64,000 nt of DNA from an uncultured virus (IMG/VR IMGVR_UViG_3300023274_000001) (taxonomy: Duplodnaviria > Heunggongvirae > Uroviricota > Caudoviricetes). The DNA lies in IMG/VR virus record IMGVR_UViG_3300023274_000001, positions 64,001 through 128,000 of that record; one strand, given 5' to 3'. The notes under the pieces are model-generated. The model did no database searches. It was not told the origin of the DNA and saw only the letters and a list, made by a program, of their open reading frames with translations. The position numbers were made by a program, and so were the translations under genes. Positions 35,250-63,920 of this stretch are shown in pieces. The number at the start of each line of letters is the position of its first letter. The stretch's first letter is position 1.

Positions 35250-36275
35250 TTGTCGCCACGACGCGGCGCCCGCTCCGGCGGGACGCGGCGCGGGGCGAGT
35301 GCAAGCGTCCGGGTTCTACCCCCGGACACACCCGCCCGGGTGTTCCTTCACATCACGTGAGGGGTGACCGGGAAGGGCTCACACGAACTCTGTGACGCAT
35401 GCGGTTCGCCGTAGCGACGTCGGGAGGGGAAACGGGAGGCACGATCCCCGGGTGAGGCGGACGGGAGCGAAACGCGCTAGCCGTAATGGCGCGGGATGCA
35501 CTCGAATGCGGTTCCTTGAGATTTTCGGAGCCCTCTCGTACACGATCCCCGGTAACCCGGGAGTACGGGAGCGGCGCAAACGGCAAGCCACGCGGTCCCC
35601 TAGGGGGCGCCGGAAAGCGTGGCCACTCGAACCGGTGGGAGGGGTCACCCTTTTGCCAGTCGGGAATACGGCGCACGGAGTACGTGACCACTTGCCGGAA
35701 TGCCTTACAGATCACAAGCGACGTGATCAGGGAATCCGGGAATGTCACAGGAAACGTGTTAAAGCGTTAGTCCGGTTCCCGCGAGTTGCGGCGCACGCAA
35801 GTACGGCCCTCTAGTCCGGGAGGTCAACCACAAGCCACGTGGGGAAACCGGGGGAATGGTGGGGAAAGCGTGTCGAAATAGTCAGTCCGCAGCAAAACCC
35901 GTTTCACCACTGGTTCGAGCCAAACGCACTATGCGGGTACGGCATAGATGATCACGCACTCTCCCGGGAGGGGTTCCGGGGGTGACGTGCGACGGTACGG
36001 CGGGATACCAGGGGTGTCGGAACCCCTGCCCGTGACGGACGGGAGCGCTTAGCGCTTCCGTCCCCCGGGGGATTCGGACGCGACACGTTGCGACGCGCCG
36101 GTTTCCACACGGAAATACGGGACGCGCTCCGATGTGGCGCCGTTTCCCCCGGGACGCATCACGTGCTGAGAGCACGAACGGACAACATGGTTTCGGTCCG
36201 GTAGGCAGGGAGGCTAGAACTCCCGTGACGCTACGACGGGGAAACTCTGTCCGTTCCTCCCTCCGCACGGAGGTT
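35250..36275 (+). ncRNA. Candidate large structured non-coding RNA (~1 kb)
   Basis: Dense nested helices, a UUCG loop, long-range pairing, G-U pairs on the + strand, no credible ORF. Confidence 0.6.
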
Positions 36276-36292
36276 CGGGAAGGATTCCGGCA

Positions 36293-36472
36293 ATGGTGAT
36301 CAGGCTTGACAACGGCGGAACGGTGACGGTCTCGGAAAGCGGGATCACGTACCGTCGGGGGCGCGAGATTCAGTGGCGCCCCCTCCCCGGAACGTACAGC
36401 GAATCGGCCGAATGGCTGGACACGTTGGCGAACGGGAATGCGGGAGTTCTGTTCACGTCGCGTAAGGCGTGA
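36293..36472 (+). CDS. Small protein (59 aa, below ORF-track cutoff)
   Basis: GGAAGGA RBS; MVIRLDNGGTVTVSESG... Confidence 0.6.
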   Translation: MVIRLDNGGTVTVSESGITYRRGREIQWRPLPGTYSESAEWLDTLANGNAGVLFTSRKA

Positions 36473-36531
36473 ACTGTCGGCAGACGTCGCACACGAGAGA
36501 TGCGACGCGGACAACGGAAAGCGGGAAGATC

Positions 36532-38334: not shown

Positions 38335-38417
38335 TCCGCAGACGTCCGGAAGTCAAAGAGCGAAGCGGGCCCCGGGAACTCCCGGGGCCCGGGTGAATCG
38401 GAAAGGGAGTACGGGAC

Positions 38418-39086
38418 ATGAGCACGATCACGGTTGCGCAGGAAATCGAGGGCGCGCGGGAGCGCGTGACGCCGTTCTTCGAGGGGCTGCGGGAGGACAT
38501 GACGGCTCACTTCTGGGAGACGTTCGGCGCGGCGGCGGCGGCCTACCGGGGCGCGCGGTCGGAGGGTCCGGCGGCGGACCGGTTCGCGGGAGTGGTCGGC
38601 GAACTGATCCGGGACGCAAAGGGAACCGCGAGTGACCCCGTGCTGCGCCGTGGCGCCCCACTCCCGGCCGAGTACGGCGCCCCCGCGCGGGAGGCCCGGG
38701 AGGTCCCTCCCATGCCCTCACGTGAGCCGTGGGCGACCATGCCGACCGACGGGAGCGGAACGCTCACCCTGCCGGAGCGCATCACGTACGCGGTGATCGG
38801 CGCGGCGTGCGTGGCGGTCCTGCTGATCATCGGATTCCTGGTCTCGGGGGTCGGGAGTTCCCCCGACGCTCCGGCCGTGGACATGCGCAACGCGGGACAG
38901 GTGGTCACGGACGCCGACTTGATCACTCAGGGTGGCTACTGGTCATGGGAGGTCGCCGAGTCGTGCGGGATGCGCGTTCCGGCGGAGTGTGACAAGACGC
39001 TGCGGGAGGTCAACGCGGCGGCGGAGCGCTACGGCGTGCGGGTGTGGGAGGACGGAACGATCTCCCCCCTCGGACGTCAGTACTGA
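38418..39086 (+). CDS. Membrane protein
   Basis: RBS; one TM segment. Confidence 0.7.
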   Translation: MSTITVAQEIEGARERVTPFFEGLREDMTAHFWETFGAAAAAYRGARSEGPAADRFAGVVGELIRDAKGTASDPVLRRGAPLPAEYGAPAREAREVPPMPSREPWATMPTDGSGTLTLPERITYAVIGAACVAVLLIIGFLVSGVGSSPDAPAVDMRNAGQVVTDADLITQGGYWSWEVAESCGMRVPAECDKTLREVNAAAERYGVRVWEDGTISPLGRQY

Positions 39087-39185
39087 TCACGGCCGTGCGG
39101 TCCGGTCGGGCTCCGGGTTTCCCGGGGTCCCGGCCGAATCGTCCGGGAGTGAGGGACGAGACGCGGAAAGGGAGAGGAAACGATC

Positions 39186-39584
39186 ATGGGTGCTGTCACG
39201 CTGGCCAAGCTGAGCGACGGAACGCGGGAGGACTTCCCGGGGGTCGGAATGAACTCCGGCGCGGGGGAACTCCAGTTCATCGGCGGAATGCCGACGCGCA
39301 AGATCGACGGTCCGCTGATCATGGTGGCCGGGATGCGCGTCAACCTGCCGGAGTCGGTCAAGGTCCCGGGTCCGCGCCGGGTGCGCGCGGTTGCCGTGGC
39401 CGTGGAGCGCGACGGGTTCCGGGACGCGGCCGAAACCGTGCCCAGCTACCGGGGCGTCGTGATCACGGCGGACGGTGACGAGTACCGGACGGGCCCGCGC
39501 GGTGAGATGGAGTACGTGCGCCGCGAGTGGCTGCGTCTGGCCGTGGAGTCGGGGACGTTCCGCCGTGTCGCCCGGATGAGCTAA
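39186..39584 (+). CDS. Hypothetical protein
   Basis: Strong RBS. Confidence 0.7.
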   Translation: MGAVTLAKLSDGTREDFPGVGMNSGAGELQFIGGMPTRKIDGPLIMVAGMRVNLPESVKVPGPRRVRAVAVAVERDGFRDAAETVPSYRGVVITADGDEYRTGPRGEMEYVRREWLRLAVESGTFRRVARMS

Positions 39585-39639
39585 CATCCGGGACGTGGCC
39601 TAGGTCAGACAGGAACATCGGGAAGGGAGAAACGGGATC

Positions 39640-40023: not shown

Positions 40024-40147
40024 CGTCGGGGAGACGCCCTAGGCGAACCGGTCCGGGAACGGACCGGGGCGCCGGGAGTGCCGCCCGGCACTGCGGGCCC
40101 GGTCACATCGGACCGGGGCCATTGGTTCGGAAAGAGAGAAGATCAAC

Positions 40148-40552: not shown

Positions 40553-40644
40553 TCCGGCCGGACCGGCGGACGGGAGCGCGCGGGAGGGGGGCCCGCGCGT
40601 TCCAGCCTGCTTGTCCAGCGGGAACCGAGGAGAGGGAGAAGATC

Positions 40645-40962
40645 ATGGCGAAACTTTCTGCGGCCGGACGGCTCGTGATGTTCCTGGTCGACAGTCCGCA
40701 CGCGCGCGTCAGCTACTCGCTGGGGGGCGGATTCAGTCCGTCGGTCATCGCGTCCATGGAGCGGGGGCACGGTACGAAGTCGAACCCGCGCGCTGACACG
40801 GTCCTGAAGCTGATCGACGTCGGCGTGCTGGAAGGGGCGGAGTTCGCGGATCTGAAGCTGACCGCGCGGGGCCGGACGATCCTGGCCGAACAGCAGGCGC
40901 TCGGGTGGGAGCTGGTCACCGGGACCGGCCACAAGCCGCGCATGCAGCAGAAGGGGAAGTGA
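40645..40962 (+). CDS. Putative HTH DNA-binding protein
   Basis: FSPSVIASMERG...NPRADTVLKL (XRE-like). Confidence 0.55.
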   Translation: MAKLSAAGRLVMFLVDSPHARVSYSLGGGFSPSVIASMERGHGTKSNPRADTVLKLIDVGVLEGAEFADLKLTARGRTILAEQQALGWELVTGTGHKPRMQQKGK

Positions 40963-41048
40963 CCGGCTGACGGGAGCGCCCCGGGGGCAACTCCGGGGCG
41001 CTGACGCCAACTTGTCACGGACGGAACCGAGGAAAGGGAGAAACGGGA

Positions 41049-41585: not shown

Positions 41586-41698
41586 CGAACGGGTCACGAT
41601 GTAGGCGGACGGGAGCGCCCGGGTCCTCCGGGCGTTCCAGCCGGTCTATGATCGGGCAACGGCCTAGGCCGAACGGGAACGCGGAGAGGGAGAAGATC

Positions 41699-42046: not shown

Positions 42047-42135
42047 CGGACGGGCGCGCGGTCGCGTTCGGGAGCGCGCGGGGATCCGTCCCCGCTCGTT
42101 CCAGTGCACGACCGGACGACGGAAAGAGGGAAGAC

Positions 42136-45100
42136 ATGGCGACGTACGACTACCTGAAGCCCGGCGAGGCGCTGGCCAGGGCGCACGAGAGCGCGCGGGA
42201 CTTCGAGAAGATCATCGGGCTGCGCGGGATGGACGCCGACAACATCCGGCCCCGGATCGAGCGGACGCGGGCCGGGTACATGCACCCGCCCGTCGACACG
42301 TGGCGCGCATACGGGAGCCGCGACAAGATGCGGGAGATCGTCAAGGTCGAGAGGACGACCGGCGACGCGGACCCCGGGACGATTACGGTCACGTTCAAGA
42401 ACGACGACGGCACGGAAGAGTCGACGTACCTGCACAGGTTCGATCTGCTCTGTGTCGAACGCCCCATCTGACGCGGTCGCGTTCGGGAGTGCCGGAGGGG
42501 GACCGGCATTCCAGTGCATGACCGACGGAAGGGAGAAACGGAAGCATGGACACGACGCGACAGAGGATCGACGACATCGCGCGGGGTTCGCTGATTCAGA
42601 CGGCGGGCGGGTTCGTGATCGCCGACCTGGACGGCTGGACCCCCGGGAGCGGTGACGGGCGGGTCGAGCCGCAACAGTTCCTGTATGACACGGACGGGCG
42701 GCGCCACTTCCCGAACGCGGACGGGGTCCTGATCACCGGGATCGCCACGTTCCGCACGCAGGAGTACGGCAAGGTGCCCGGGAAGAACACGCAGGGTCAC
42801 GCGCTGCTCAACCTGGTACCGGGTCAGCCTCCGGCCGGTCTCTGCCCGGCGTCCCGGAACCTGGGCAATGCTCTGTCGGTCTGGTCGTCGGGGACGGCGC
42901 TCACGGGTGTCACGTGCCGGGCGTGCCGGAAGATGATCGGCCTGGTCAACACGGGTGCGCCCCGGCAGAGCAACGGAATCTGATCATGGACGAGTTCGCC
43001 TACTACTCCCCCGGCGCGAAAGCCGGGACGCTCCACATGCGGGAGCTGACGGACGACGTATTGCGCACGATCGCCCGGGACCGGGACCACGTGACCCCGG
43101 AGTTCCGGGAGGTCTACGCGTTCATGGAGACGGTCAAGGACGGCGACCGCCCGACGAACGCCGATTGGGTCACCGGGAGGGCGATCGACGAACTGTTCGA
43201 CCGGGGCCGGATCGACGGGGAGCGGTACGACCACATGCGACGGGAGGCGGGGCTGTGAAGCTGATCGCCGTTGACCCGTGGGACTGCGGGTGCACGGAGT
43301 GCATCACGGGCGAGTACGTGCCCCTGCGGTACGCCACGGATGAGCAGGTCGCCGACCTGATCGCGGGGAGGCTGCGCAACAACCTGAACTCCGGTACCCA
43401 ACTGGAGATCCGCACCACGTACGCGACGGAGGGCGGGAAGCTGGTGTTCCACGACGTCACCGTGACGTACGAGCACCACGACGGACAGACGCGGGAGTGG
43501 TCGCCGGACCCGTACCGGATGGGTCTCGCCGCGTAGTAACGCACGGAAGTGATGGACGGATGCGGGGCCCACACGGGCCCGGCCGGAAGGGAGAACACGA
43601 TGGGTCGCACGGTCGAGGAGTTTCACGGTCTGCTGGCTGACCTGCTGAGCAACACGCGCCGGAAGCATGACGGGCGCCCCGGTCCGGGACAGCCCGGTTA
43701 CCTGAGTGACGAGTCGGCCGACGCGGTGACCATGTGGCGGCACATGGCGCACATGGCGCACTCGTACGCGAACGGGGCCGACGTGCGCGGGATCCGGCCG
43801 ACAGGGTCGGACCTGTGGGAGGACGGCATGGACCGGGGGAAGTTCCTGGCCCTGATCACCGAGCGGTCCCGCATCCTGCGCGCGGTGAAGCGCGGGGGCG
43901 ACATGGACACGATGCTCGTGGACGACTCCGTGCGGTACTGGGAGTTCACCCTGGCCCTGTCCACGGTCACGAACGACGAACACGCCGAGTCGGCCCGGCA
44001 GAACGGGAACCGGGAGGCCGCGCGCCGGATCATGCTGGAAACGGAGATCGACCTGGCCCTGATCCGGGCGTACACGGACGTCGACATCGCGACCCTGCGC
44101 CGCACGCTGCGGGAGTGCGAGGGTGAGCGCCCCGTGTCGCCGGGCCGGAACGGTGACGGCTCCCGCAAGTGGGAGCCGCACCCGCTGTTCGACCTGATCA
44201 CGGCCAACCGGCCGACGGTCTGAAGCTACGGAGCGCCGCTGTTCGGGCGGGCGCGGGATTGCGGTCCCGCATCCGTCCGTGTGGTGACGGTTCGACGGAA
44301 GGGGAAGAGATGCGAGCGACGACGACGGACCGAGTGGCTGTGTTCATCCAGCCGGGGGACGAGATCGTGAACAGTCGGGCGGAGGTGCACGACGTGTTCA
44401 AGGTGCTGCACTCCGGCTACGGGTTCGCGGGAGTGCTGCTGACGCAGCGCCCGACGGAGACCGGCAAGGGGATGCGGTACGCGCTGTGGATCGTCACCCC
44501 GGAGGGGGACGTGCGGGCCACGATGACGACGGACGACTTCCCGGCAGTGACGGGCGCGTTCATGGCGCGTGCGAACGACATGGTCCGGGAGGGCGCACGG
44601 TGAAGCACACGTACGTGTACCGGCTCCCGAAGGGGAAGCGGTGGCTGTGGACGGCGGGACGTGCGGGCGCGGCCGACCTGTTCCTGTCCCCCGAGACGGG
44701 TGACGGGACGGATCCGGACTGGCAGGGGTACATCGGTCTGTCGAATCACCTCGGTCACATGGAAGAGCTGTTCCGCAAGGCGATCGAGGACGAGCCGCGC
44801 GTGTGCATCGGCAAGCACTACATGATCCCGGGGTCGCTCTGTGAGGTCTCGCAGGAACGGGAAAGCCTGGCCAGTGAGACGGTCCGGCTGGTCACCCTGT
44901 GGACATGGGATGCGCCCGTACTGGAAGGGACCACACTGTCCCGGCTGCGCATGACCCTGAACCGGCCGACGGACGCGGAGGGGATGAGCAGCCGGGCCGA
45001 GCGGATGGCATTCCTGGCGGAGAACGAGGGGCACCGGATCGTACCGGTGTGGATGTGACGGAGCGCAGTGCTTCGGGCCTGCACGGGAGTGATTCCGTGC

Positions 45101-47187
45101 GGGTCCGTGGTGCCGGGCGGTCCGGCCGGAAGGGAGATTGATCATGGGTAAGACGCTGGACGAGTTGCTGCACGGGCCGAGCGCGCTCCCCGTGCTGGTC
45201 AAGGCCGACGGGACGTTCGAGACGGCGGCGTACCCGCCCCCGACCCTCGCCGAGTACGCGCCGGAGTCGATCGACGTCGACTATGAGGGCTCGTTCGAGG
45301 ACGGGCAGATTCTCGACCACCACGAGCGGGACGCGATCAGCTCCGTCGAGAACGGATGGACCGTGCTCACGGGATGGTCGGCGGACCCGTCCCTGTTCAT
45401 CATGCGCAACGACCAGTACATCGGCGGAGCCCTGGCCGAGCACATCGCCGAGACGCCGGGCCTGTGGGCGGTCGTCTCCGTCGAGATGCACCCGCACGCG
45501 TGCGGCGCCGGGAAGGACGGGATGCCGTGCCCGGAGTGGGACGAGCACGAGACGTGCGAGCACGCCGAGGGGGGCGAGTCGGACGGAGTCGGGTGGGCGC
45601 TGGTTCACCGGGAGCCGCAGGACGACAACGCCTGACGGGAAGGGAACGGAAGTGCTGTACGCGATCTACGTTCCGACCGCCCGCACCCCGACGTCCGGTC
45701 TGGAAGTCGAGCGCCTGCCCTCACGGGAGCAGGCGGGGCGGTGCCTGCTGGAACGGAACCTGTTGGGTGCCGGGCGAACCTGGTTCCTGGGAGACGAGCC
45801 GTCCCGGTACGGAGCGCACCGGCCGGTGAGGGAGTGGGCCGACGCGGACGAGACCGGTTACATGCGGGTCTTCCTGCGCAAGGCCACGGAGCCGGTTCCC
45901 CGGCCGCTGGACACGCCTCATGAGGAGTGGCTGGTCAACCCGGGAGGCAAGCGCGGGGTCGTGGTCCGGCTCCCGTGGGAGGCGGCCGACGGCGAAGTGG
46001 TGCGACTGCTCAAGGACGGGTTGCGGGTACTGCCGTCCGGTACGGTTCCGGCCCCGGCGCCCCGCAGCCGGACGATTGTGGCGCATGCGCCGCTGGTCGT
46101 GGCGCCCCGGCCGGTCTGCGGGAGTTGCTTTCAGGTCAAGCACCCTACGGCCGGGTGTGGTTGCCCGGATACGGGCGCGGCCCTGGTGATGGAGATGCAG
46201 CGGCCGACCCGGGATGGATGGGAGGAGTGCCCGGGGTGCGGCAAGGCGGTATCCGCGTACGCGCGGTGTGGTTGTTCGTGATCGAGTCAGGCAGGGAGAG
46301 GAACGGATGAGCAGCGGAGACGGACCCCGGGAGATCGTCGTTCGGCACAAGCAGAACGTCTTGCGCGGGGTGCCGACGATGGGCGTCGGTGCGCAGGACA
46401 AGCAGACGGGGGCGCACATCTGGCTCCCGTCCCCGATCAGGGACGGTGACCGGTTCACGGAGGGCCGGGAGGCGGCGGAGGTCGTGGCCCGGAAGCTGCT
46501 GCCGGACGGCGCGCGGCTGCTGTGGAGCCGGGACACCCCGGAGACGTACGTCTTCACGGTGGCGGGTGCATGATCTTCGGTCTCGTGTTCGTCCTGTACT
46601 TCGGGTGCGGCCTGACCTGCATGGGCCTGCGGTACCTGTGGGCGGGATTGCGCAAGATCAGAGACGGCAACGCCGGGTGATCTGAGGCATTCGGGAGGAT
46701 TCGGGACCGGGTTCGGTCCGGTTCCGAGTCTTCCAGTGTGTTCCTGATCGGTCGAATGGTCATGAACCGGACGGAAAGGATGTAAACGGTGAAAGCTGAG
46801 CGAATGAAGTTCACGGGGGCGTTCGTCGAGGAGGTGGCGGCCCGGGTCGAGAAGATCACGGGCGGCATGTTCAAGCTGGGGCCGGTCGGCTCGCACCCGG
46901 AGCACGGGACGTCGTACGCCGACGCCCGGGATGACCGGGTGTGGTACGGACCGCAGGGAGCCCGGCAGGCGTGCGCGTTCTACACGGCCGCCGCGATGCG
47001 GTACCTGCACCTGATGGGCATCGAGCCCGACGGGGACGACGGCGAGTTCTTGCTGGCCGTGCAGGTGGCGTACTCCCGCTACGGGGCGACCGCCCGGGAG
47101 CGCGTCGACTACCACGAGTGGGAGATGCGCGGCGGCGACCGGGCGCAGGAACTGATCAACGCCGCCGAGGGCGACGCGCGCAACTGA
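42136..47187 (+). other. Array of small hypothetical genes: 42136-42471, 42546-42983, 42986-43258, 43255-43536, 43600-44223, 44310-44603, 44600-45058, 45144-45635, 45652-46281, 46307-46573, 46570-46680, 46789-47187
   Basis: Each has a purine-rich RBS or overlapping start/stop and high-GC3 codon usage. Confidence 0.7.
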
Positions 47188-47220
47188 CCAGCGGTACACG
47201 ACGGAAGGGAAGAACGGGAC

Positions 47221-47736: not shown

Positions 47737-47809
47737 CCATCCGCGCACTTCGGGCGGGCATCCGGGAGACCGGGTGCCCCACCGTGGACCACGGAAGGGA
47801 GATCGGGAA

Positions 47810-48343: not shown

Positions 48344-48352
48344 GGTGACGAG

Positions 48353-51300
48353 ATGCACGGATCGTACGACGACATGATGGACTGGAAGTACCGGGAGGAG
48401 AACGGCGGGCGGGAGCGGGAGATCGCCTACATGCCGAACTACACGAACCCGGAACTCCCGGACTACGTCGCTCCCGAGGATCGTGACCCGGAGCTGGAAA
48501 AGGAGATGCACGAGATCTACGCCCGGGACAACGCCGGGCGCGTCGCGCGCAATCACCGGGCCGAGGTCGCCGGTCTGCGGGCGCTGCTCGAAGAGAACGG
48601 GATCGAGATCCCGGACCACCTGTGATCACCGCGTGATTCAGGGGCGCACGGGAGGGGGCTCGTGCGCGCCTGTGTCCCACGGTGGGACCTGATGGACGGA
48701 CGGAAAGGAAGAAACGTGATCAAGAAGCTGAAGGGGATCCTGGGACTGGGCATCGGCCCGTCGGAGTACGCGCCGAACCCGAGCGTGATCGGTTCGGTGG
48801 AGCAGTCGAACGCCGGGAACGCCGTGCTGCGCATCGGCAAGGCGACCGTACCCGACGAGGGCAACCCGTCGTGGACACAGACCGAGTACGTGGTGCTGTC
48901 CCCGGAAGAGCGGGACAATCTGATCGACGTGCTCGACTCGCAGAACGGCTACCGCACGGTCAAGTGCGGCGACATCATCGGCGTCGGCTCCATCGTGCTG
49001 GCCGTGCAGTACGCGAACGGTGCGGGCGGCGGGGAGCGCCGCATCGGTACGGTCCTGGCGTGGACGGACCACAAGCGGGAGTACGTGGTCTACACCGTCG
49101 ACCCGTACGGCGAGGTGAGCAACGGGACGTACACCTTCGACGAGCAGCGGGCGCTGAACGCGTACATCGCCCGGTCCAACGACCACCTGTTCCGCCACTT
49201 CAACGCCAAGCCTCCGGCCATCACGTACGCCCACGTGGCGGAGCGGGACGTCCTGAAGGGCGACCGCGCATGAGCAGCGAACTGACGGGCCTGCGGGTCA
49301 AGGTCGGACTGGCCAACCGGCCGGTCTACGGCGTCGCCCGGGTCCGGTACAACGAGGGCCACGCGCACGCCGGGAAGTACGAGATCGAGACGGCCGACGG
49401 GAAGTCCTTCCTGGCCCCGTTCGACGCATGCAGGCCCGGCGACAACTGGGACGTCACCCCGGAAGAGGGGCGGTTCACGGGGGCGGAGATCTTCCGGCCG
49501 AACTTCCTGGACGGCACCGGCAAGGCTTTCCTGAGCCGTGGCCCCGGGGTCATCGTGCCCGGGAGCATGGCGCAGATGTGGAAGCTGCTCGACCCGGTCC
49601 GGAAGGGCTGGACGGTCGAGTGGTTCAGCCGTGGCGCCAACGAGTTCCGGGGCACGCTCACGGTCGCCGAGCGGGAAGAGGCGGCGTTCCGGATGAGCGG
49701 GAAGCACGCGTTCCACTACACGTGGCCCCAGGTCGGCGAGGAGTTCGAGGTCATCGGCAACACGCTGCACGAGGTGCGGGTGCCGCCGAAGAGGACCGGT
49801 AAGCACCCGTCCCGGTCCCTGTCGCTCACGTTCCACCGACCCTGACGGAAAGAGGGAAGAGCATGACCGGAAGCACCAGATATCCGGCGACGTCGTACGA
49901 CAAGCTGAACGAGGAATGGGAGGTACGGGCGGAGCCGATCACGCAGCTCCGCATCGCCTCGGAACTGGCCCCGTGCGTGAGCGCCGGGATGACCGTGCGC
50001 GGCGGCCCGCTGCGGGCGCAGCTCCCCGACGGTTCGTCCGGACGGGAGATCGGCGCTGTGTCGATCGTGTGGAGTCAGACCGAGCAGGACGACGGCAGTC
50101 GTACGGTGCTCGGGTGGTACGAGTCCGGGCGGAACTGACGTCCGGGTGGCGGCCCGTGCAGGGTGCCGCTAGTCTGGCCTAGGCCGACGGGTTCGGGAGC
50201 GGCCGGTCCTCCGGGATCGGCCGCTGACGTGCCGTGTCGGACGGCGATTGAATCGGAGAGGGAGAAGAACATGGGGACGTATCGCACCGACGGTGAGAAC
50301 GAGATCGGCGTTGCCCTGACGGACTCGTGGGCGGCCGTGTGGACCGTCGACACGGAGTACATCGAGGTCATCCGGCGCGACTTCTGGGACGAGCACAGCG
50401 AGGCGATCAAGGAGTTCGCCGAGCGGGGCCGCGACTTCACCGACGAGGACGGCCACAACGGCACCGTCGCGGTGATCAGCACGAAGGGGGACCTGGACGG
50501 CGAGGGGTTCCCGAAGGAGTTCGACGACGCCTCGGAGTACGTCGCCGACGAGCTGTCCTCGTGGACCAGGTCGGACGGCGGCGCGTACGAGCGGGCCACC
50601 GTTCAGGGATACAGCTACTGACGGGAGCGGTTCGATGCACGGGGAACTGATCAGGTACACGTGGGCACCGAACCCCGGGATGGCCTGGGGTCTGGTTCAC
50701 CTGTCACAGGGCAGGGACGGCGACATGATCGGCGCCTTCGTGTACGAGGACCGCGACGCAGCGCTGAAGGGTGAGAAGCGGGCCGGGAACACGCTGTACC
50801 GGGTGGTGCGGCAGATCCGGCCCGCCGATCAGAGCACCGGGACCCCGGACGCCGGGGCCTACGCCTTCGTGTGCAGCTCCGCCACGGAGTACACCATCTG
50901 GACGAAGCCCACGGTGAACGACGCGGGCGGGAGCGAATACGACGGAGTGTGGTCCTTCCGGGACGCACCGGCCGCCGTGGAGCGCACCGGATGGGCGAAC
51001 AAGGACAACGCGCGGTACGAGGGACCGGACAATCCCCGGTTCGCAACGTTCCTGCTCACGTGGGACGTAACGGAAGAGGAGAGCTGACGTGCAGGAAGTC
51101 ACCCGCTGGGACCAGAAGAAGATCCAGATGTTCGACCGGGGTGACCGGGTCGAGATCGGGCCGGGCGAGGTGGCCACGGTCGAGCACGACATGGGCGGCG
51201 AGGTCGTCCACGTGCACCCGGAAGGGAGCCGGGGCCGGTATCCGCACGACGCCGTGCCGGTCGCCCGGGAGGGTGTGAAGCTGATCCGTCAGACCGTGGA

Positions 51301-54300
51301 CGGTGAAGAGGTTCAGGTCGAGATCTACTCGAACGGCTCCACGCACACGCTGTACGAGTGCTGCGGGTACGACGACTGCCGGGAGCTGATCCTGGTCAAG
51401 GGTCTCGGGATCGACCGGGACGAAGCGTTCGCCGGGGACCGGTTCCTGACCGAGGTCGAGGGTGAGCCGGTCCGCATCACGGTCAAGCCGCTGGACGACC
51501 CGTCGTCGTGCATCTGGTGCTACGGGTGCGGCGACTTCCTCGCGCACGGCGAGGGCTGCGAGTGCGAAGACCGGGGCCACAACCCCGAGGCCGACCGGGA
51601 GCCGATGCGCCCGCTGGTCGTGGAGGACGGTCGGCTGGAGCTGACCCACTGGAACTGAGCGGAGACGCCCTAGGGCTCCCGGCCGAGCGCCGGGGGCCCG
51701 GGAGTGTCGCTGATCGGGCGATGCCGGAACGGAGAAGGAGAACGGGATGACCGAGATGGACGTGCTGGAGACGGCGGGCCGCTACCGGGTGCGCCTGGTG
51801 GTTCAGCAGGACTCGCAGGATTGCAACCCCCGGACCGAGCAGGACTGCAACCTGACGAACGTGATCACCCCGAAGGGTCAGCGGTACATCGACGTCGACA
51901 AGGACGGCGGCCCGCTGGCCGAGGGCTGGGAGCGGATCGAGGACTGGTACGTGGACGCGGTCCCGGTCTTCACCCGGTGGGCCAAGATCTTCCACGGCGC
52001 CACGGTCGTCGAGCACCGGCCGCACGACGGCGCCTGGTCCATCTGGTACGTGATGCCGGAGAAGCTGGCCGAGACCACGTGGACGGCCGAGAAGGTCATC
52101 GAGTCGGAGCAGGCCGAGTACCAGCGGTGGGCCGAGGGTGAGGTGTACGGCCACATCGTCGAGAAGGACGTGACTCGCATCCCCCGGGACGCCGAGGACC
52201 GGGAGGACCCCGAGCTGGACGACGAGACCAGCGAGTGGGAGCACGTCGACTCGTGCTGGGGCTACATCGGCCGGGAGTACGCCGAGGAGGCGGCCCGTGA
52301 GGCGTTCGTCCCGTACGCCGAGGAGGCCGGGAAGTGAAGCGCGAGGTGCGGGAAGTCGCTCCGATGACCGTGACCCGGATCATCCGGGGCAGGCCGCCGG
52401 GACACATCGGACCGTACTGGTTCGGCTTCGACATCAAGGTGACCGGTCCGGCGGACGGGGCGTACGTGAGCGTTCGCGCCCGCGCCCTGGCCATGGCCGA
52501 CGCGAAGGCCCTGTGTGAAGAGGTGAACGCGCCGGACCTGGTGCTCCAGTTCGAACAGTCCGGCAACTGGAGTGACCCGAGGGAGTACGAGTGCACGATC
52601 AGCTTCGGTACGGGCCTTTCCGTGGAGGAGGACCCGCTGTGAGCGGTGACATGTGGACCCTGCCCGACGGGACTGAGATGGTCTACCAGGATGGTGATCA
52701 CGTCACCATCGACATCGACCCCGGTTCGTCGTCGGCCCTGCAACTGCCGTTCCTGAGCGGCTACGTGCGGGGGTACGACGCCACGATCGAGGACGACGGT
52801 CCGGCCAAGGTGGCGTACACGCTGTACAGCGTGGGGAACAACCCGCTGGTCGGCGTGCGGGAGGAACGACTGAAGAAGACGGTCGGCCGGTTCGGCATCG
52901 GCCACGGCCGGGGTGCGCACGGGGACGGCAAGGCGTGTCATCTGTGCGGTGCGAACCTCTGATCGGGAGGCGCCCTAGGGCGACCGGCTCCGGCCGGTCA
53001 CCCGGGAGTGCCGCTCACCAGAGCGGACGGAGAGGGAGAAGATGCTGACGAGTGAGGGTCTGGCCGAGGGACGCGCCTGGGTGGCCACGCCGGAGGAGTA
53101 CGAGGAGAAGGTGCAGCCGCACGTCAGGCAGCGCAACGAGCGCCGCCTGCGGGGTTTCAACTTCGAGATCGTGATCGGCGGCCTGTGCCGGGACGGGGAC
53201 TTCGCGTACCCCTACCCGGGCTACTACGGCACCACGGCGCCGGTCGTGGGGCTGCGCCGGGACCAGGCCGAGCACCTGACGGCCGAGCTGCTGAAGAAGC
53301 TGGCCCCCGGCGGCGAACTGCCGACCGACGCGGCCGAGCTGCTGGACTTCGTGTCCACCGTGCTCCGCAACGGCTCCACCCCCGCCTGACGGGAGGCGCC
53401 CCAGGGTTTCCGGCTGCGACCGGAGGCCCGAGAGCGCCGCTCGTGAGCGGTGTGGACCGGAAGGGAGGTGATCGTGATGAGCGACGACGAGTGGGAGAAG
53501 GCGGGCCGTGAGGCCGATGAGATCCTGCGTCGGCTGAACGGCTGATCGCCGACCGCGCAGCACACCACGTGAGCACAGAGAACTGCAACCGGAAGATGGA
53601 GAAGAACATGACGCAGGAGACGCCCCAGACCCCGCCGGACATGATCAACGTGCCGGTCCCGGCCGACACCCCGCCGCCGGAGGCCATCGCGGTCACCCCG
53701 GAGAACGCGCAGCAGATGGACGCCGACAAGAAGTAGCGGGCCGACGGCGCCGCTCGGGGCGGCCGGGAGACCGGCCGCCCCCTCGGAAGGGGGAGACATG
53801 CACGAACAGGACGTATGGCGGGTGCGGTTCACCCGGGAGCACGGGGAGCTGTTCTCGCAGACCCTGGAAGGGCTGATGACCTTCCGGTACGGGTCCAGCG
53901 GGACGTGGGCGGCGCATTCGGCCATGCTCCACTGGACCCGGGCGTGCGGGGTGCCGGGCAACGCCGAGAACTATCCGATGCAGTACCTGGTCGAGGCCAT
54001 CCGCATGAAGGACGGCGAGGAGATCGTCGCCGGTACGGCGACCGTCGTACGGGATTCCCTGAACGGGAAGTTCCTCAACGAGAACCAGGTCGACATTCTC
54101 CAGTTCACCACGGAGGGGACGCTGATCCGTACCCGGGAGAGCTGGACCGTAGCCGAAAGGCACTGAAGGAAGGGAGTGGGGCATGGCTCTCACGCTCACG
54201 AAGGAACCGGCGCCGGAGATCACCGGCCCGATCACGATCCGCTCCGAGTGGAACCACTCGTGCACGTCGCAGTGCCCGAACCCGTGCCCGGCATCGTCCC

Positions 54301-54877: not shown

Positions 54878-54952
54878 GCCGGTGCGTTCGGGGCGGCGGG
54901 AGCTACGGGTTCCCGCCGCCCAGTGCACATCGGACGGAAGGAGAGGGAGAGC

Positions 54953-55924: not shown

Positions 55925-55928
55925 GGTC

Positions 55929-57765
55929 GTGGCGGAAGACTGGGCGCGGGAGATCGAGACCGGGGATCACTCACTCCGCGTGGGGCCCGAGGGCGTCACG
56001 CTGGACGGGCCTGGTGGCGTGGAAGAACTGACCCCGAAGGACATCGAGCGCCTGTACCAGGCGCTCGTCAACTACCGCTCACACAGCGGACTGGACTGGG
56101 AGTGGGCCCGTCAGGGCTCCGACTGGTGGAAGTAGGAGAGGGAGAAGATGAACGAGACCACCATGCGCCTCATTCACTGGATCTGGGGCGAGCCGAAGCT
56201 GGCCGAGTTCCTGCGTGGCATCGCCGAGGGGGAGGAGATCCCGCCGCACCACGAGGTGTTCGAGTACGGGGATGACCAGCTCGCCTGCTGGATCTCCGAC
56301 CTCGTCTTCCCGGAGGACCGCAGCCGGGGGATCAAGGCGTGGATCGACCTGGGCGGCAGCGACGAGCGGGCCGACGCCCTGTATGAGACGCTGACCGAGG
56401 GCCGCAAGACGCCCGCCGGTCGCCTGAAGTGGCTCGACGAGATGGACATCGGCCTGATCCGGGACGCCCTGCTGGGGCACCGGGGAGGCTCGGACATCTA
56501 CGTCCACTCCCTGGTCAAGCCCTACCACCCGAACAACACCTACCGGGTGCACGACTCCGGGACCGTGTACGAGCGAGGGTGGACGTCGGCCTCCGGCGCC
56601 TGGGGGCTGGCCGAGAAGGACCGCCAGATCTGCCCCCGTCCCACGGTCTCGCCGTGCGGGTGCACGGTGGTCCAGCGTGGCTGACCTGAGCTGCACCTGC
56701 GGTCCCGGCACTTCGGTCGCCGGGACCCGGCAGGAGATCATCGAGCAGCGGCTGGCCCCGCTCTTCGGACTCACGGTTCCCGAGGTTCATGCCCTGCTGG
56801 ACCTGCTGGACCGGGCGAACGAGGCCACGCTGGACATCCCGGACGACAAGCGGGACCCGGACGGCGGGGAAACCGAGCGGCAGATGGCCCGGGAATCCGG
56901 CCGCACCGAGGGCTGGATCAAGAACTTTCTGGCCGCGTGGGAGTTCACGGGTGACACCCTGGACCGGGAACTGCACGAGAAGCATGGCCCATGGGGCGGT
57001 CTCTTCGGCAAACAGTCCTGAACAACTGGAACTTCACGGCCTAGGTCAGTAGTATTCGAGGGCCCCGGGAGAACCGGGGCCCGGGAGGAGAGACGGCATG
57101 CAGCAGATGGACGAGTACCGGCGCACCGCCAAGTTCGTGGACGTGGTGGCCGGTGAGCCGGGTCAGGTGCACACGGTGTACCGCTTCCCGAACACGGAGC
57201 ACGGTCACGGCCGGGCGGTCGAGTACCGCAACGCCTACAACGAGTCCCTGCGCGAGGCGATGGGGATCCCGAAGGCCGACCTGGAGCTGGAGAGCCCCGA
57301 CTGGGGTCAGCGCCGGGACGAGTATGACCGGGCCGAGAAGGTCGAGTCGTACCGGTACAACCAGGCGGGACTTTCGTACGTGCACCCGCCCAAGCTGATC
57401 GGGCCGGACGACCCGATGCCGACCGACTACCCGCACGAGTTCTGAGGAGATCCGGGATGGCCGAGCTGACCCGTGACACCACGCACTACATCGTCCATTC
57501 CACGGTCGTCGACCCGGGACCGAACTCCACCTTCGGCACCTCTCCCCCGTACTCGGGTGAGCGGGCACTGGAGCGAGCCGTGAAGGCGGCCCATGCGGAG
57601 CTGGCCGGGCGCCGCCGGGCGTTCGTGACGGCCCGGGACGGCGAGAGCCGGATCCTCGCCGTGATCCCGGTCGTGGACTACCCGGTCTTCGGGGACACGC
57701 ACGTCCCCGAGAACGCGCAGGACGCCATCACGGCCCTCTTCGAGGGGCTGGACTGGACGATCTGA
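55929..57765 (+). other. Small hypothetical genes 55929-56135, 56148-56684, 56677-57021, 57098-57445, 57457-57765
   Basis: RBS and codon usage. Confidence 0.7.
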
Positions 57766-57837
57766 CACGGACGAAACCGGGCCCCTGGGAAGGGCTCCCG
57801 GTAGGCGGAACAGGACCGCCCTGACGAGTCCCGTCAG
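57762..57837 (+). ncRNA. Type II hammerhead ribozyme
   Basis: GGAC-GAAA-CCGG..CCGG-UA^-GGCGG-loop-CCGCC-CUGACGA-GUCC: all core nucleotides and three stems present. Confidence 0.93.
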
Positions 57838-57852
57838 TACGGAGAGGAGAAG

Positions 57853-60840: not shown

Positions 60841-60843
60841 GAC

Positions 60844-61146: not shown

Positions 61147-61148
61147 AC

Positions 61149-61463
61149 ATGGCACGCAGGAACCCGCTGCTGGCCAAGGCCCTGCCGTCCACGGTGGACG
61201 ACCACCACGTGATCAAGGTGAGCCACCTCGGCTGGCAGGACAACGAAGAGCTGTCAATGATGCCCGGCTACCTGGCGGCCGTCATCACGTACAACGCCTA
61301 CAGCGGTGACGACCCCGGCGCCTACGGCATCCACCTGATGCGGACTGCCACGCCCGACGGCCGGTGGCTGCGCATCGACAGCCGCCGCAACCTGATGTGG
61401 AGCGAGGCCGAGAGCGCCTTCGCTTCCTACGACAAGCTGGCCGTCCGGCCGGGGAGGATCTGA
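61149..61463 (+). CDS. Hypothetical protein, paralog B
   Basis: Shares LGW..ITY..H.M..W.RI.S..F..KLAV.P with the previous gene. Confidence 0.7.
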   Translation: MARRNPLLAKALPSTVDDHHVIKVSHLGWQDNEELSMMPGYLAAVITYNAYSGDDPGAYGIHLMRTATPDGRWLRIDSRRNLMWSEAESAFASYDKLAVRPGRI

Positions 61464-61465
61464 AC

Positions 61466-63920
61466 ATGGCAGGCATCCGCATCCTGGAGCGCAACGGCGA
61501 CATCGTCTCTCACTCGTCCGTGTGGGCCGGACCGGAGGAGGTTCCGGTGGTCTTCGTGATCGTGAAGGACGGGGTCACTGCGCTCGCCCACCCGGACTAC
61601 GTCGGCGGCACCATCTACGACATCGAGCAGGGCGACCTGACGATCGAGCAGGCGTGGGATGCGCTGCTGATCAAGACGCCGAAGCTGGTCTACCCGCAGA
61701 GGTGCACCGTGCGCAGGCTGGATGGGACCGGCGGAGGCGCCGAGATCCTGATCGGCAAGCGGGTCGTGCACCGGATCGCGGGGGTGAACGAGTGAGCGCC
61801 TTCGAGAGGCCCAAGGAGATCGGGAAGCGGCCCGAGCCCGGCAAGCTCGACCCGGTGTGGACCTTCCTGCGTACCTCGTACGGGCCGGAGTACAACTTCG
61901 ACCTGTACCGGGCGCACGGTCTCGACAGCTTGTACTTCGTCGACCCGCGCCAGGACCCGCAGCCGTGGGAGCTGAAGGACGGGGCGCTGGACCTGGGTCT
62001 CGACAAGGAGCGCATGACCGAGCTGCGGGACCTGTTCACGTACCTGCTCGACAACTGGGGCAGGCCGTGGGCCCGCGAGTCCCACCCGGAAGAGGAGAAG
62101 TAAGTGGCCAAGCTGATCGAGATCCCCAACGTCACCTGCGGGAACGGCCTGCACATGCAGGCGCCCGCCCCGGAGCCGGTGTTCCACTTCACGCAGAACG
62201 ACGGCTTCCACGGGATCATCTACCTGGACGCCGTGAAGGCGTGGGCGCGGGCCATGCGGGAGGACGGGGTGCCCCTGCGGGAGATGGCCCACGACCTGTA
62301 CGTGCTGCTGCCGGGCAGCCGGGAGCTGATCCGCTGCACGCTGGTCGTGGCGGACGGCGAGAACGGCCCGGAGATGGAAGTCGAGGCTCTGCGGCCGACG
62401 GTCCTGGAGTCCAACACCCTGTTCACCTGCCCCATCTGAGCCGGTCGGCTTCTCGGGGACACGGGCTTCGGTCCGTGCCCCCGGGTGGACTATCGGAAAG
62501 GACAAGAAACGCGATGAAGTACAGGTTCTGGATCTACCGGGACGTGGCTCCCCCGTACGCACTGGCGGGCAACCCGAACGCCCCGAAGCCCAGCGATCCA
62601 CTTCCCGTCGGCCTGGCTCACCCGGGCCGGGAGGTGGAGGGGATCACGCCTGCCGTCGACCAGATCATGGAGGTCTTCGAGCAGCACGGTGTGGACGACG
62701 AGAGCGAGAAGGCCATTATCCGGGGGAAGGCCACGGAGGCACTGCTGCGGGGTTCCTACCGCACGGCTCTGCCCACGCCCGGCCGCTGGCTGCTGGCCGA
62801 GAAGGTCGTTCCGGGCCGCACGCACCCGGTTACCGGAGAGGTGAGCGAATGAGGTACGGACTGACCGTGAACAACGGCCGCGTGATGGCGGCCGACCGGG
62901 CGGAGACCAAGGCAATGATCATCGGCGTGCTGCTGGCCGCCGGGTTCAGTGAGCCGGTTTCCGTACAGGTCAAGGCCGACGAGGTGCTGGACCGGGCCGA
63001 CAAGCTGCCTTCGGACGAGGTGCAAGGCGTGAAGCTGGCCAGCCTCGGCGAGCTGCTGGTCTGGCGGGAGCGCGGCCGGGAGGTTTCGGGCCGCTTCTAC
63101 TACGTGAAGGCCGGGGACATCGGGGCCGCCTTCCGGACCGATGCCGAGGCGCCGCTGGTGTCGCACCTGATGGGCCTCCTGATGGGCAGCGAAGGGATCG
63201 GTCTGGAGCGGGCGGCGGCGCTCTCCGAGGGCGTGGCGCACTGCCTCTCCGAGGGTGGCAGCTACCCGAACCGGGTCATCACCGAGCTGAAGAACGGCTC
63301 GGACCTGCGGGCCTGGTGGGAGGACGAAGCGTGAGCTGGATGATGGCTGTCGGGTCGGGCCATGGCCCCGTGGGGCCCGTCCGGGAGGCGCAGGAGCTGA
63401 GGAACTGCGTGCTGGCCGCCCTACTGGTGGCCGGTGTCGACGAGGAAGACGCCGAGTGGGAGAGTTCGCACGCCCCGGAAGCGGCAGCCGGGGGTGAGGC
63501 CGTCTGGACGTACGCCCTCCCTGACGGAAGGAAGATCGTGGTCTGGAAGGAGAGCGGGACGTGACCCACAACTGGAGCTGGACCATCCGGGTCAAGCAGG
63601 GCGATCCGGGATACCGGGTGCACAGCATCGAGGCCCTGATGGCGGCCGTGGCTGGCGCCCTGATGGCGGAGGGTACCGACTCCCGGATGGCCGACACGTT
63701 CGCGCGGTCGGTCCGGGAGCGGGCGCTGGAACAGTGCGAGCAGCGTCGCATGAACCACTCGACGCCGCCGCTGGAGTACCAGCAGATCCTCACCGTCACG
63801 AAGGCGCTTCACGTCACCTCGGACGACCTCCCGGAGGACTCGGACCGGTACTGCGAGGGCCGGACCGAGTCCGGGAGCCGCTGCCCGAGACACCTCAACC
63901 ACCTCGGGGAGTGCCGATGA
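61466..63920 (+). other. Small hypothetical genes 61466-61795, 61792-62103, 62104-62439, 62514-62852, 62849-63334, 63331-63564, 63561-63920
   Basis: Overlapping start/stop coupling and RBS. Confidence 0.7.

Follow-up and report, generated by a model that had tools for sequence, protein, structure and literature searches.

RNase III processing signals are known from the early mRNA of phage SP82 in Bacillus. The early precursor of T7 carries five such signals, at which single-strand cuts in loops or bulges leave stabilising 3' hairpins, as described in PMC3867540. Hammerhead ribozymes have been known in phage and prophage operons since 2011. They flank genes in prophages and were read there as processing long phage transcripts, according to the account in PMC3088659. 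Repeated intergenic elements are also described for Cluster K mycobacteriophages, in which a 13-bp SAS lies at the start codon and the ESAS comprises imperfect inverted repeats of 17 bp separated by 4-13 bp (PMC3203893).

The window analysed here is a 64,000-nt stretch of a 188.7-kb Streptomyces phage related to the cluster BM phages Satis, JustBecause, Kela and Frankenweenie. Large Streptomyces siphophages were not found as hammerhead carriers in the literature searched. In this group, hammerheads and several other conserved RNA structures occupy one fixed slot. The reading preferred here, to which a probability of about 0.45 is assigned, is that a polycistron would be punctuated at the RNA level: the hammerhead would cut itself, and the hairpins would most likely be cut by host RNase III or stabilise 3' ends, as in T7. 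The system allows a test of whether a very long transcript can be divided into stable messages by self-cleavage or by nuclease sites interchangeably, and the relatives Satis and JustBecause can be grown in the laboratory on Streptomyces lividans. RNA punctuation would also explain, in practical terms, why cluster BM genomes have intergenic islands of unusual conservation.

Gene array and structured leader

Approximately 62 small + strand genes of unassigned function were called by GC3 from 36293 to 63920, up to the window end. The calls agreed with the annotated hypothetical genes of Frankenweenie, and the co-oriented array proposed in the sequence-only reading was thereby confirmed. No Pfam family was found in the 10 largest array proteins. 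Spacer statistics covered the 25 array spacers of at least 50 nt. Relative to Satis, 18/25 spacers but only 30/62 genes were at least 80% aligned, and 10 spacers were retained next to a gene that was less than 20% aligned.

An untranslated, highly folded leader (35250..36292, + strand) precedes the array's first gene. It is supported by the lack of a GC3-supported ORF, by its folding energy and by conserved islands in relatives; no ORF passed the GC3 filter within 33228-36468. The minimum free energy (MFE) of 35300-36290 was -476.4 kcal/mol vs -430.1 +/- 7.7 kcal/mol in 20 shuffles (z = -6.0; 0/20 equally stable), and a coding control of equal length gave z = +1.26. The earlier claim that the array begins with a large structured RNA held for the fold of this ~1-kb leader; conservation across all 8 aligned phages was confined to a ~135-nt core (35929-36063), and the remainder could be aligned among closer relatives only.

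The core (35929..36063, + strand) comprises four hairpins: P1 (35929-35947), P2 (35955-35991), P3 with the invariant loop GUGUCGGAAC (36000-36033) and the family-A-like P4 (36037-36063). In 6 folded sequences, 13/43 pairs had changed on both sides, 99.2% of cells were paired, and 0/500 shuffles matched this. The core occurs once in the genome, at the very start of the array. No Rfam match to the leader was obtained.

Bulged hairpins of the intergenic spacers

Spacer elements lay a median of 1 nt from the upstream stop codon and 19 nt from the downstream start codon (25 spacers). In 20/25 spacers, the main helix started within the stop codon or at most 6 nt beyond it. Its median length was 22 bp (range 8-40), and it reached at least 20 bp, the approximately two turns of an RNase III signal, in 16/25. 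The hairpin families are 21-27 bp bulged helices that start at or just past stop codons. Internal loops, bulges or mismatches of the kind expected to guide single-strand cleavage were present as the A1 mismatches and the single-A bulges of family B. The + strand was more stable than its complement in 19/25 spacers (p = 0.0006), with 70 G-U pairs vs 37. Across 22 hairpin ortholog groups comprising 529 pairs, 44 had changed on both sides and 97.1% were paired; slid controls gave 3-7. The hairpins are strand-specific, covarying structures of RNA type and of RNase III-substrate size. At least three families of bulged stem-loops following stop codons had been proposed, with an order of stop codon, structure and ribosome-binding site. 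Both proposals were borne out, the first by helix position, invariant cores and covarying stems, the second by RNA-type elements occupying a fixed place after stop codons along the array.

All hairpins listed below are on the + strand. Family A1, with core CGUUCGGGAG / UUCCAGUGC, was found at 42057..42116 and 42472..42526, with its motif nested twice (AUUCGGGAG..CUUCCAGUGU) at 46680..46748, and as a variant (GUUCGGGG..CCCAGUGC) at 54879..54933. In this family, 11/21 pairs were compensatory, the core was invariant, and C.A, U.U and G.A mismatches were kept. The apical stem of the nested hairpin covaried in Frankenweenie, Kela and Satis while its flanks were invariant. Family B, with core CGCCCUAGG / CCGGGAGUG, was found at 40027..40089, 51658..51715 and 52963..53019, and as a variant (CCCCAGGG / CCCGAGAGCG) at 53389..53445. 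It had 10/23 compensatory pairs, an invariant core and two single-A bulges. A1 and B hold approximately 20 invariant nucleotides, concentrated in internal loops between covarying helices. Contigs found with the A1 architecture were all BM-like, apart from two of 251 and 259 kb; the architecture was present in none of 80 examined matches from cellular genomes. Families A1 and B and the leader core are candidate structured RNAs absent from Rfam.

Family A2 hairpins occupy the spacers 40553..40644 (GGACGGGAGCGC..GCGUUCCAGCC; 27 bp) and 41586..41698. In the latter, the hairpin is followed by the palindrome GGCCUAGGCC (41661-41670), and the spacer was 94-97% identical in three relatives in which the flanking genes were replaced. 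A family A3 hairpin (UGACGGGAGCG..CGCUGACG), the helix base of which holds the stop codon, lies in the spacer 40963..41048. A family A3 hairpin also occurs in the spacer 50139..50270, together with another hairpin and GGCCUAGGCC (50176-50185). Family D hairpins (UUCGGG..CCGUG(G/U)UG type, related to A1) were found in the spacers 44224..44309 (26 bp, 7 G-U pairs) and 45059..45143 (27 bp; 91-95% identity in three relatives), and a D-like hairpin of 23 bp in the spacer 62440..62513. The spacer 39087..39185 contains a 27-bp hairpin with a helix beginning at the stop codon; it was kept in Satis, where both adjoining genes were largely unalignable. Family C is a CCTAGG-centred palindrome, GGCCTAGGTC, at 39597..39606 (no strand assigned), with other copies at 41661-41670, 50176-50185 and 57038-57047. 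Seven spacers contain CCTAGG, which was absent from the 25,245 nt of coding sequence in the array and was invariant in relatives.

A hammerhead in the same slot

One spacer had been described as holding a complete hammerhead. This was upheld by the core, descriptor scan, paralogue model and covariation, with Rfam scores below threshold. The element (HH1, 57762..57837, + strand) is a type II hammerhead with stem II open. C3-U4-G5-A6-N7-G8-A9 of the core is present as CUGACGA (57821-57827), and G12-A13-A14 as GAA (57773-57775) of the GAAA at 57773-57776. The three helices required around the core are present, with stem III (57776-57802) and stem I (57804-57820) closed. Proximal stem II pairs GGAC (57769-57772) with GUCC (57828-57831), and distal stem II pairs CUGAC (57762-57766), which includes the stop codon of the upstream gene (57763-57765), with GUCAG (57833-57837). 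The A15.1-U16.1 pair is A57776-U57802. H17 is A57803, and cleavage is predicted at 57803/57804, which would leave 2',3'-cyclic phosphate and 5'-OH ends.

Both core segments were invariant across all relatives and paralogues. H17 was A, U or C, never G, in HH1 orthologues. The HH1 spacer was 90.6% identical across four phages with unalignable flanking genes. The paralogues HH2-HH4 occupy the same slot with different stems, and a model built from HH2 and HH4 alone detected HH1 at 29 bits (E = 3e-5). The descriptor scan gave 1 match in the genome, both strands included, and 0 in 60 random genomes. Covariation was assessed in 11 distinct rows (92.6% of cells paired; 11/23 pairs changed on both sides; 0/500 shuffles as good) and in 55 distinct rows obtained from 59 viral-contig matches (95.6% paired; 20/23 pairs changed on both sides). 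Each of the two alignments had been fitted to the model, and slid controls were 24-44% paired. The A15.1-U16.1 pair was retained in 11/11 rows and 54/55 viral-contig rows, and H17 was C in 54 and U in 1 of the 55 viral-contig copies. Related viral contigs carried 3-6 hammerhead copies near one another. Copies of the JustBecause/Kela lineage could be weaker, since they carry U.U in place of G-C at pair 10.1-11.1. HH1 is judged a genuine hammerhead on this comparative evidence.

HH1 resembles the type II hammerheads described in prophages and phages (Perreault et al. 2011, PMC3088659) in being intergenic in what would be long phage transcripts and in occurring in several copies per genome. Its stem II sets it apart from those described there: beyond an internal loop, the stem continues to a near-invariant closing helix, CUGAC/GUCAG, that overlaps the upstream stop codon. 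The pseudoknot between loop I and the 3' tail, part of the type II consensus as given in that report, was not evident here. Between loop I and the internal loop of stem II, the longest complementary stretch averaged 1.85 nt vs 1.57 nt with permuted partners (0/300 permutations as high), and it reached at least 3 nt in just 14/55. Unlike the named type II class, HH1 fell below the Rfam Hammerhead_II threshold of 37 bits, scoring 13.7 bits (26.8 bits at HH2). Hammerhead_3 gave 17.6 vs a threshold of 48.5, through a different GAAA; no Rfam gathering threshold was reached at HH1.

Proposed transcript processing and rival readings

The right arm would be read early, into a single very long + strand transcript or a small number of them. 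Transcription would start near the terminal repeat, which in relatives forms the physical genome end (window position 33624); no sigma-70-like promoter site was found. The transcript would open with the ~1-kb untranslated folded leader bearing the four-hairpin core; many stop codons are then followed by a conserved structure and, ~19 nt on, by the next start codon with a strong ribosome-binding site. The hammerhead would cut itself between A57803 and G57804, so that the upstream message would end in a cyclic phosphate behind the G+C-rich hairpin of stem III, and the downstream message would begin with a 5'-OH and the stem I hairpin. For the other structures, irregular helices of 21-27 bp with invariant internal-loop cores, an equivalent role achieved differently is most likely: cutting by the host double-strand-specific RNase III, or a block to exonucleases, would give stabilised, gene-sized messages, as happens with the early mRNA of T7. 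No RNase III of the phage's own was found in its genome, so the host enzyme would be required for hairpin cutting.

Position and shape suggest that these other motifs may be cleavage sites, and helix length, irregularity and position are what link them to RNase III. Like the T7 early signals as described in PMC3867540, they are irregular hairpins, approximately two turns long and with conserved internal loops, that separate the cistrons of a presumed long phage transcript. The expected product, as with the T7 signals of that description, would be an upstream mRNA carrying a protective 3' hairpin. Unlike T7, there are ~20 sites vs 5, in several sequence families with cores invariant across phages, the host is actinobacterial, and cleavage here is a prediction. 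Invariance of the cores hints at a partner that recognises sequence, a behaviour atypical of RNase III.

Strong hairpins right behind stop codons all along the array could instead be pause, attenuation or termination signals, with the leader acting as a processive antitermination element (HK022 put RNA or nut/N-like) and read-through, not cleavage, setting expression. The position of the covarying leader domain, once and at the very head of the array, and the density of hairpin-bearing spacers, highest in the promoter-proximal 20 kb, fit this reading and recall HK022 put and EAR, in which a conserved cis-RNA stands once at the head of a very long hairpin-rich operon. The leader here is much longer, with neither sequence similarity to those elements nor an Rfam match to a known antitermination RNA. 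A scan for U-tailed terminators in 33200-46000 gave 4 sites vs 6.4 expected, none on the + strand inside the array, so no U-tract terminator for the leader to overcome was found in that part of the array; by eye, the array spacers had purine-rich tails. Helices of 21-27 bp with conserved internal loops far exceed usual terminator stems in length, and modest termination at each of ~25 successive signals would be enough to silence distal genes. This read-through reading is regarded as unlikely. The motifs could also act on DNA, as integron attC-like single-strand or other recombination sites that shuffle gene cassettes; single-strand recombination sites had been the alternative offered in the sequence-only reading. 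The hairpins do resemble attC sites: they are bulged and imperfect, stand directly behind the stop codons of small, promoterless genes that all point one way, and have conserved ends around a variable middle. Spacers survive as conserved islands amid replaced genes, and a cassette of hammerhead plus gene is present in Kela and missing here. Gene-replacement breakpoints against relatives also gathered at junctions (Frankenweenie 17/20, Kela 28/35, Satis 28/50), the neighbourhoods of which make up 22% of the array. They fell there with or without a motif, however: motif spacers were no commoner as breakpoints than tight junctions (19/25 vs 24/36; Fisher p = 0.57), and the anticipated association of motifs with breakpoints was not obtained. 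The sense strand, not the bottom strand as in attC, folds better and contains many G-U pairs. No tyrosine recombinase (PF00589) was matched in the genome, whereas controls matched in 14/14 genomes, and no attC-like R'/R'' core was seen. Together with the presence of an RNA element, the hammerhead, in the same slot, this leaves a DNA role scarcely credible.

The invariant cores (CGUUCGGGAG/UUCCAGUGC and CGCCCUAGG/CCGGGAGUG) could also be bound by an RNA-binding protein, of phage or host origin, that controls translation or stability of neighbouring genes without obligatory cleavage. Invariance of the cores while the flanking helices covary is a signature of sequence-specific recognition, the motifs are limited to this phage group, and a strong shared ribosome-binding consensus comes next. 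A precedent is provided by the Cluster K SAS/ESAS which, as described in PMC3203893, are repeated one-orientation intergenic elements with a ribosome-binding sequence and inverted repeats upstream, conserved in related phages and unassigned in function. Identity with SAS/ESAS was rejected on the repeat geometry described there: the ESAS adjoin start codons, whereas the helices here are 21-27 bp long, run from the upstream stop codon and show G-U covariation. The elements lie nearer the upstream stop than the downstream start, no candidate protein emerged from the largest array proteins, and the hammerhead in the same slot favours cleavage as the common task; such protein sites are considered distinctly unlikely. 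That shared slot, and the invariant nucleotides held in internal loops between covarying helices, would likewise fit A1 or B as unrecognised self-cleaving RNAs doing the job of the hammerhead. Twister sister, pistol and hatchet were discovered through structures near known ribozymes, and other structures found by the same association did not cleave, as described in PMC6765202. The hairpins are near-continuous simple helices with no junction, pseudoknot or second domain for an active site, and none matched a known ribozyme family, which makes this very improbable indeed. A broader proposal, in which A1/B would be a new minimal self-cleaving class or recruit a dedicated nuclease, interchangeably with hammerheads, and the leader core would be a new operon-wide cis-acting RNA, is a long shot.

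A separate sRNA complementary to the ribosome-binding consensus had also been put forward. No + strand match was found in or near the array; the best + strand duplexes were in apparently coding DNA at ~13.7 kb, or were weak. The extended consensus itself, GGAGAGGGAGAAGAUCAUG, is present on the + strand in 7 copies, at 40629..40651 and at 41683, 50255, 53029, 53592, 54418 and 56135.

Hammerheads in the gene array

The window covers bases 64001-128000 of one virus contig of 188,697 bp. Searches of the phage collection by megablast and blastn returned only seven relatives, every one a Streptomyces phage: Frankenweenie, Kela, JustBecause, Satis, Quantum, Kradal and EhyElimayoE. Cluster BM was founded on Satis and JustBecause, siphoviruses with prolate heads, genomes of more than 180 kb and terminal repeats of approximately 1,049 bp (PMC6687918). 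The comparative sets used below were drawn from relatives that are few and closely related. Approximately 62 plus-strand genes were called from GC3 between 36293 and 63920, with gene starts assigned by us, and this array runs on past the end of the window. Its counterparts in the relatives were all annotated as hypothetical. A Pfam scan restricted to the ten largest array proteins returned no families, and no tRNA was detected in the window with ARAGORN. The first large gene (36532-38334; 600 aa, without a Pfam match) had a GC3 of 0.83, below that of its neighbours, contained seven CGGGAG[CT]G words and aligned only partially with Kela and Satis.

The sequence-only reading had placed a complete hammerhead in one spacer of the array. 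This was confirmed for the spacer 57766-57852 by a core at 57762-57837, here termed HH1, and by strong comparative support. On the plus strand, the 5' strand of distal stem II (CUGAC, 57762-57766) contains the stop codon and is followed by an AC linker, the 5' strand of proximal stem II (GGAC) and the first part of the core (GAAA). Stem III (57776-57802), H17 (A57803), stem I (57804-57820) and the second part of the core (CUGACGA, 57821-57827) come next, then the 3' strand of proximal stem II (GUCC), a bulged C and the 3' strand of distal stem II (GUCAG, 57833-57837). Judged by its sequence, HH1 carries a hammerhead core that is complete and follows the type II permutation.

Rfam gave no match in the whole window at gathering thresholds, and HH1 was without a match at E ≤ 10 over 31 kb. 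It scored 17.6 bits with Hammerhead_3, via a different GAAA, and 13.7 bits with Hammerhead_II (threshold 37). A hammerhead descriptor run on both genome strands returned HH1 as its single site; 60 first-order Markov genomes yielded no site at all. In Quantum, Satis, Kradal and EhyElimayoE the alignment was confined to query positions 305-396, which correspond to the HH1 spacer (90.6% identity), and the genes flanking HH1 could not be aligned. The core was unchanged in all HH1 orthologues, with A, U or C at H17; as a caveat, positions 10.1 and 11.1 are U.U in the JustBecause/Kela lineage. A tertiary loop-loop contact of stem I with stem II was only weakly indicated.

A second type II hammerhead, HH2, was found outside the window through an Rfam search, at genome positions 143668-143737 (window-equivalent 79668-79737; locus L021, 1492-1561), with 26.8 bits for Hammerhead_II, below the threshold of 37. 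In the same plus-strand array, HH2 directly follows a stop codon and precedes a ribosome-binding site (RBS), and it shares the HH1 core and the CUGAC/GUCAG closing helix; its stems I and III differ. A pattern scan located more paralogues in Kela and Satis, all between stop codon and RBS, with stems I and III different in every case. A covariance model built from HH2 and a further paralogue, HH4, alone detected HH1 with 29 bits (E = 3e-5; 214,696 bases searched).

Hammerhead alignments were based on covariance models because MAFFT misaligned HH1 with HH2-HH4; both alignments are fitted to the model and thereby biased toward the structure. With that bias, 14 matches (11 distinct rows) had 92.6% of cells paired and 11 of 23 pairs changed on both sides; 0/500 shuffles were as good and slid controls were 24-44% paired. 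A loose pattern gave 83 IMG/VR stretches, and a model search of 76 loci gave 59 matches at E ≤ 0.01. In this larger set (55 distinct rows) 95.6% of cells were paired and 20 of 23 pairs had changed on both sides, again with 0/500 shuffles as good and slid controls at 33-36%. Comparative support for HH1 as a hammerhead is strong despite its sub-threshold Rfam scores.

Multiple viral contigs carried three to six closely spaced hammerheads. The IMG/VR loci L073, L053, L085 and L050 are unrelated high-GC viral contigs, each with a group of 3-6 hammerheads of this subtype inside a few kb (in L073, for example, at 5258, 5739, 6437, 7080 and 7338). Their gene-flanking layout is that described for prophages. 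Perreault et al. report type II hammerheads arranged around prophage genes and propose processing of long phage transcripts (PMC3088659), so HH1 belongs to an already known class. It differs from known members in its extended stem II, whose closing CUGAC/GUCAG helix overlaps the stop codon, and in scoring below the Rfam thresholds. Among the papers that the literature searches listed, none connected hammerheads to phages of Streptomyces or to actinobacteriophages; the alignment dataset of Perreault et al. might already include relatives of these copies.

Hairpin families after stop codons

The array has 31 spacers of at least 20 nt (2,294 nt in total), among them 25 of 50 nt or more. The main helix starts inside the stop codon or no more than 6 nt past it in 20 of the 25. 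Helices have a median of 22 bp, with at least 20 bp in 16/25, and the following start codon lies a median of 19 nt beyond. Compared with orthologues in Frankenweenie, Kela and Satis, the lower parts of the hairpins were invariant and the upper stems covaried. Across 22 ortholog groups, 97.1% of cells were paired, and of 529 predicted pairs 44 had changed on both sides, against 3-7 such pairs in slid controls; these same alignments had served to derive the structures, and paralogous members of a family could be among the 'orthologues'. In 19 of the 25 spacers the plus (sense) strand was more stable than its complement (Wilcoxon p = 0.0006; mean difference 5.5 kcal/mol), with 70 G-U pairs against 37. 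This argues for RNA, or at least the plus strand, over double-stranded palindromes.

Family A1 (42057, 42472, 46680, 54879) has the core CGUUCGGGAG / UUCCAGUGC, in which 2 bp and 1 bp lie between the successive C.A, U.U and G.A mismatches. A2 (GGACGGGAGCGC..GCGUUCCAGCC) occurs in spacers 40553 and 41586, and A3 (UGACGGGAGCG..CGCUGACG) in spacers 40963 and 50139. Family B (40027, 51658, 52963, 53389) has the core CGCCCUAGG / CCGGGAGUG with two single-A bulges. Family D, UUCGGG..CCGUG(G/U)UG, is A1-like (spacers 44224, 45059 and 62440). In A1, 11/21 pairs were compensatory around a constant core (10 sequences, taken from the window, its relatives and two more distant contigs of 251 and 259 kb), and in B, 10/23 (17 sequences). 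The conserved bulged stem-loop families claimed to lie directly after stop codons were thereby upheld, by helix position, covarying stems and the constant A1 core. Taken together, the comparisons show sense-strand structures, evidently RNA, under selection in a fixed slot, with the predicted hammerhead as one class.

The A1 pattern had 21 distinct matches in viral contigs; the fold itself was present in BM-like contigs and those of 251 and 259 kb, and absent from the remaining matches. Among cellular genomes it was found in 0/80 stretches examined of 90 reported, none from Streptomyces; one reached -25 kcal/mol, with another fold. The A1, B and leader-core motifs had no Rfam 15 match.

Family C comprises CCTAGG-centred palindromes (39597, 41661, 50176, 57038). 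CCTAGG was present in seven spacers and absent from the 25,245 nt of coding sequence in the array. Between 35250 and 64000 it occurred at 35599, 39599, 40038, 41663, 50178, 51669, 52974 and 57040, always intergenic and within 10-12 bp palindromes (GGCCTAGGCC, CGCCCTAGGGCG, CCCCTAGGGG); the 188.7-kb genome contains only 25 copies. These palindromes are candidates for action either as DNA (operator or restriction avoidance) or as RNA. CGGGAG was 2.6-fold enriched in spacers relative to coding sequence. It was rejected as a special signal, being partly compositional, since the 7:1 strand bias was the same in both.

Leader, upstream DNA and genome end

No GC3-supported ORF was found between 33228 and 36468. 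Folding of 35300-36290 gave z = -6.0 (0/20 shuffles as stable), against z = +1.26 for a coding control of the same length. Across eight aligned phages, 35929-36063 was the one part of the leader kept throughout. This leader core forms four hairpins with 43 pairs, 13 of them changed on both sides, and 99.2% pairing (0/500 shuffles as good; 0-5 pairs changed on both sides when slid). Six of the eight sequences were folded, Kela and its near-twin G002 being omitted because of a large insertion. The core has one copy in the genome, and a pattern search of IMG/VR located it at four loci, in the same phage group only. Rfam (E ≤ 10) gave weak, unrelated matches for the leader and none for its core. 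The large structured RNA proposed at the array start therefore does exist, in the form of an untranslated leader that is folded, but its conserved unit is approximately 135 nt, not 1 kb.

DNA-type repeats common to all eight aligned phages lie within 35001-35260 (GCUCUGACCUGCA, its inverse and UUGCAAUGGCAGCCAUG) and are presumably promoter or operator sites. Conserved, repeated DNA motifs before the leader (CCTCTGACCTGCAC at 35008, GCTCTGACCTGCAC at 35162, TGTGACCTGCGTCACAC at 34875 and 35121, TTGCAATGGCAGCCATG at 35215) look like sites of the same kinds; no sigma-70 consensus was found within 33624-35260. A direct repeat, GACGCGGCGC, stands at the start of the leader (35260-35269 and 35282-35291). 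Both copies read GACGCAGCGC in Satis and in the related genome G005, so the copies change together. The RBS of the first small ORF (ATG 36293) lies within a CCUCC-GCAC-GGAGG hairpin (36253-36292), preceded by the pyrimidine run UUCCUCCCUCC and kept in 6/8 aligned phages; it could be an occluded Shine-Dalgarno sequence.

In Frankenweenie, Kela and Satis the record's right physical end corresponds exactly to window position 33624, which places the array start approximately 1.6 kb inside a genome end. This position is compatible with an early transcript. The low-GC stretch after 33624 is presumably the terminal repeat, which is approximately 1 kb in published relatives. Two pyrimidine tracts (33993-34008 and 34464-34481) fall inside the terminal repeat implied by the relatives' genome announcement.

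A separate sRNA complementary to the RBS consensus was looked for without success. A search with an anti-RBS 12-mer gave the RBSs themselves on the minus strand and a few distant sites on the plus strand, and a duplex scan found nothing convincing near the array. The best duplex sites, at around 13.7 kb in the window, were rejected as lying inside apparently coding DNA.

Proposed processing of the transcript and its alternatives

The array would be transcribed as a long polycistron that its RNA structures cut or delimit into stable units, a reading to which we give a probability of about 0.45. Hammerhead cleavage would leave an upstream product ending in the stem III hairpin; the downstream product would have a 5'-OH and open with the stem I hairpin. 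The long irregular helices could be cut by the host enzyme, as they resemble the RNase III signals of T7 in size and irregularity. The early precursor of T7 is processed at five signals of this type, where cuts in a single strand leave 3' hairpins that are stabilising (PMC3867540). Genome searches found no encoded RNase III or RtcB, so a host enzyme would act.

Comparison systems for these structures are SP82, put and nut, attC and the SAS sequence. Attenuation signals coupled to leader-mediated antitermination are a rather unlikely account of the array, whose plus strand contained no U-tailed terminator within 33200-46000. The hairpins are somewhat less probably protein-binding control sites. 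That they are new self-cleaving RNAs is improbable: new ribozymes have been found beside known ones, with negative outcomes of the same approach also noted (PMC6765202), and Rfam at E ≤ 10 (31 kb and two stretches of approximately 8 kb) matched no known ribozyme family in the hairpin spacers, giving weak unrelated matches only.

It is very improbable that the motifs are DNA recombination sites. Alignability breakpoints did fall at gene junctions (17/20, 28/35 and 28/50 in three relatives, against the 22% of the array taken up by junction neighbourhoods), but motif spacers (19/25) and tight junctions (24/36) were struck alike (p = 0.57), so that the predicted preference of breakpoints for the motifs was not borne out, and a genome search found no tyrosine recombinase.

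Spacers persist as islands. Against Satis, at least 80% was aligned in 18/25 spacers and only 30/62 genes, and ten spacers adjoin a gene less than 20% aligned. These islands are read as purifying selection on the spacers, which may also provide incidental homology for exchange. Kela (locus L011, 11797-12217) carries an extra cassette of a hammerhead paralogue, HH3, and gene 268, with a stop codon on one side of the insertion and a conserved hairpin/CCTAGG spacer on the other. At 135314-135348 of the present genome the cassette is absent and the spacer is retained.
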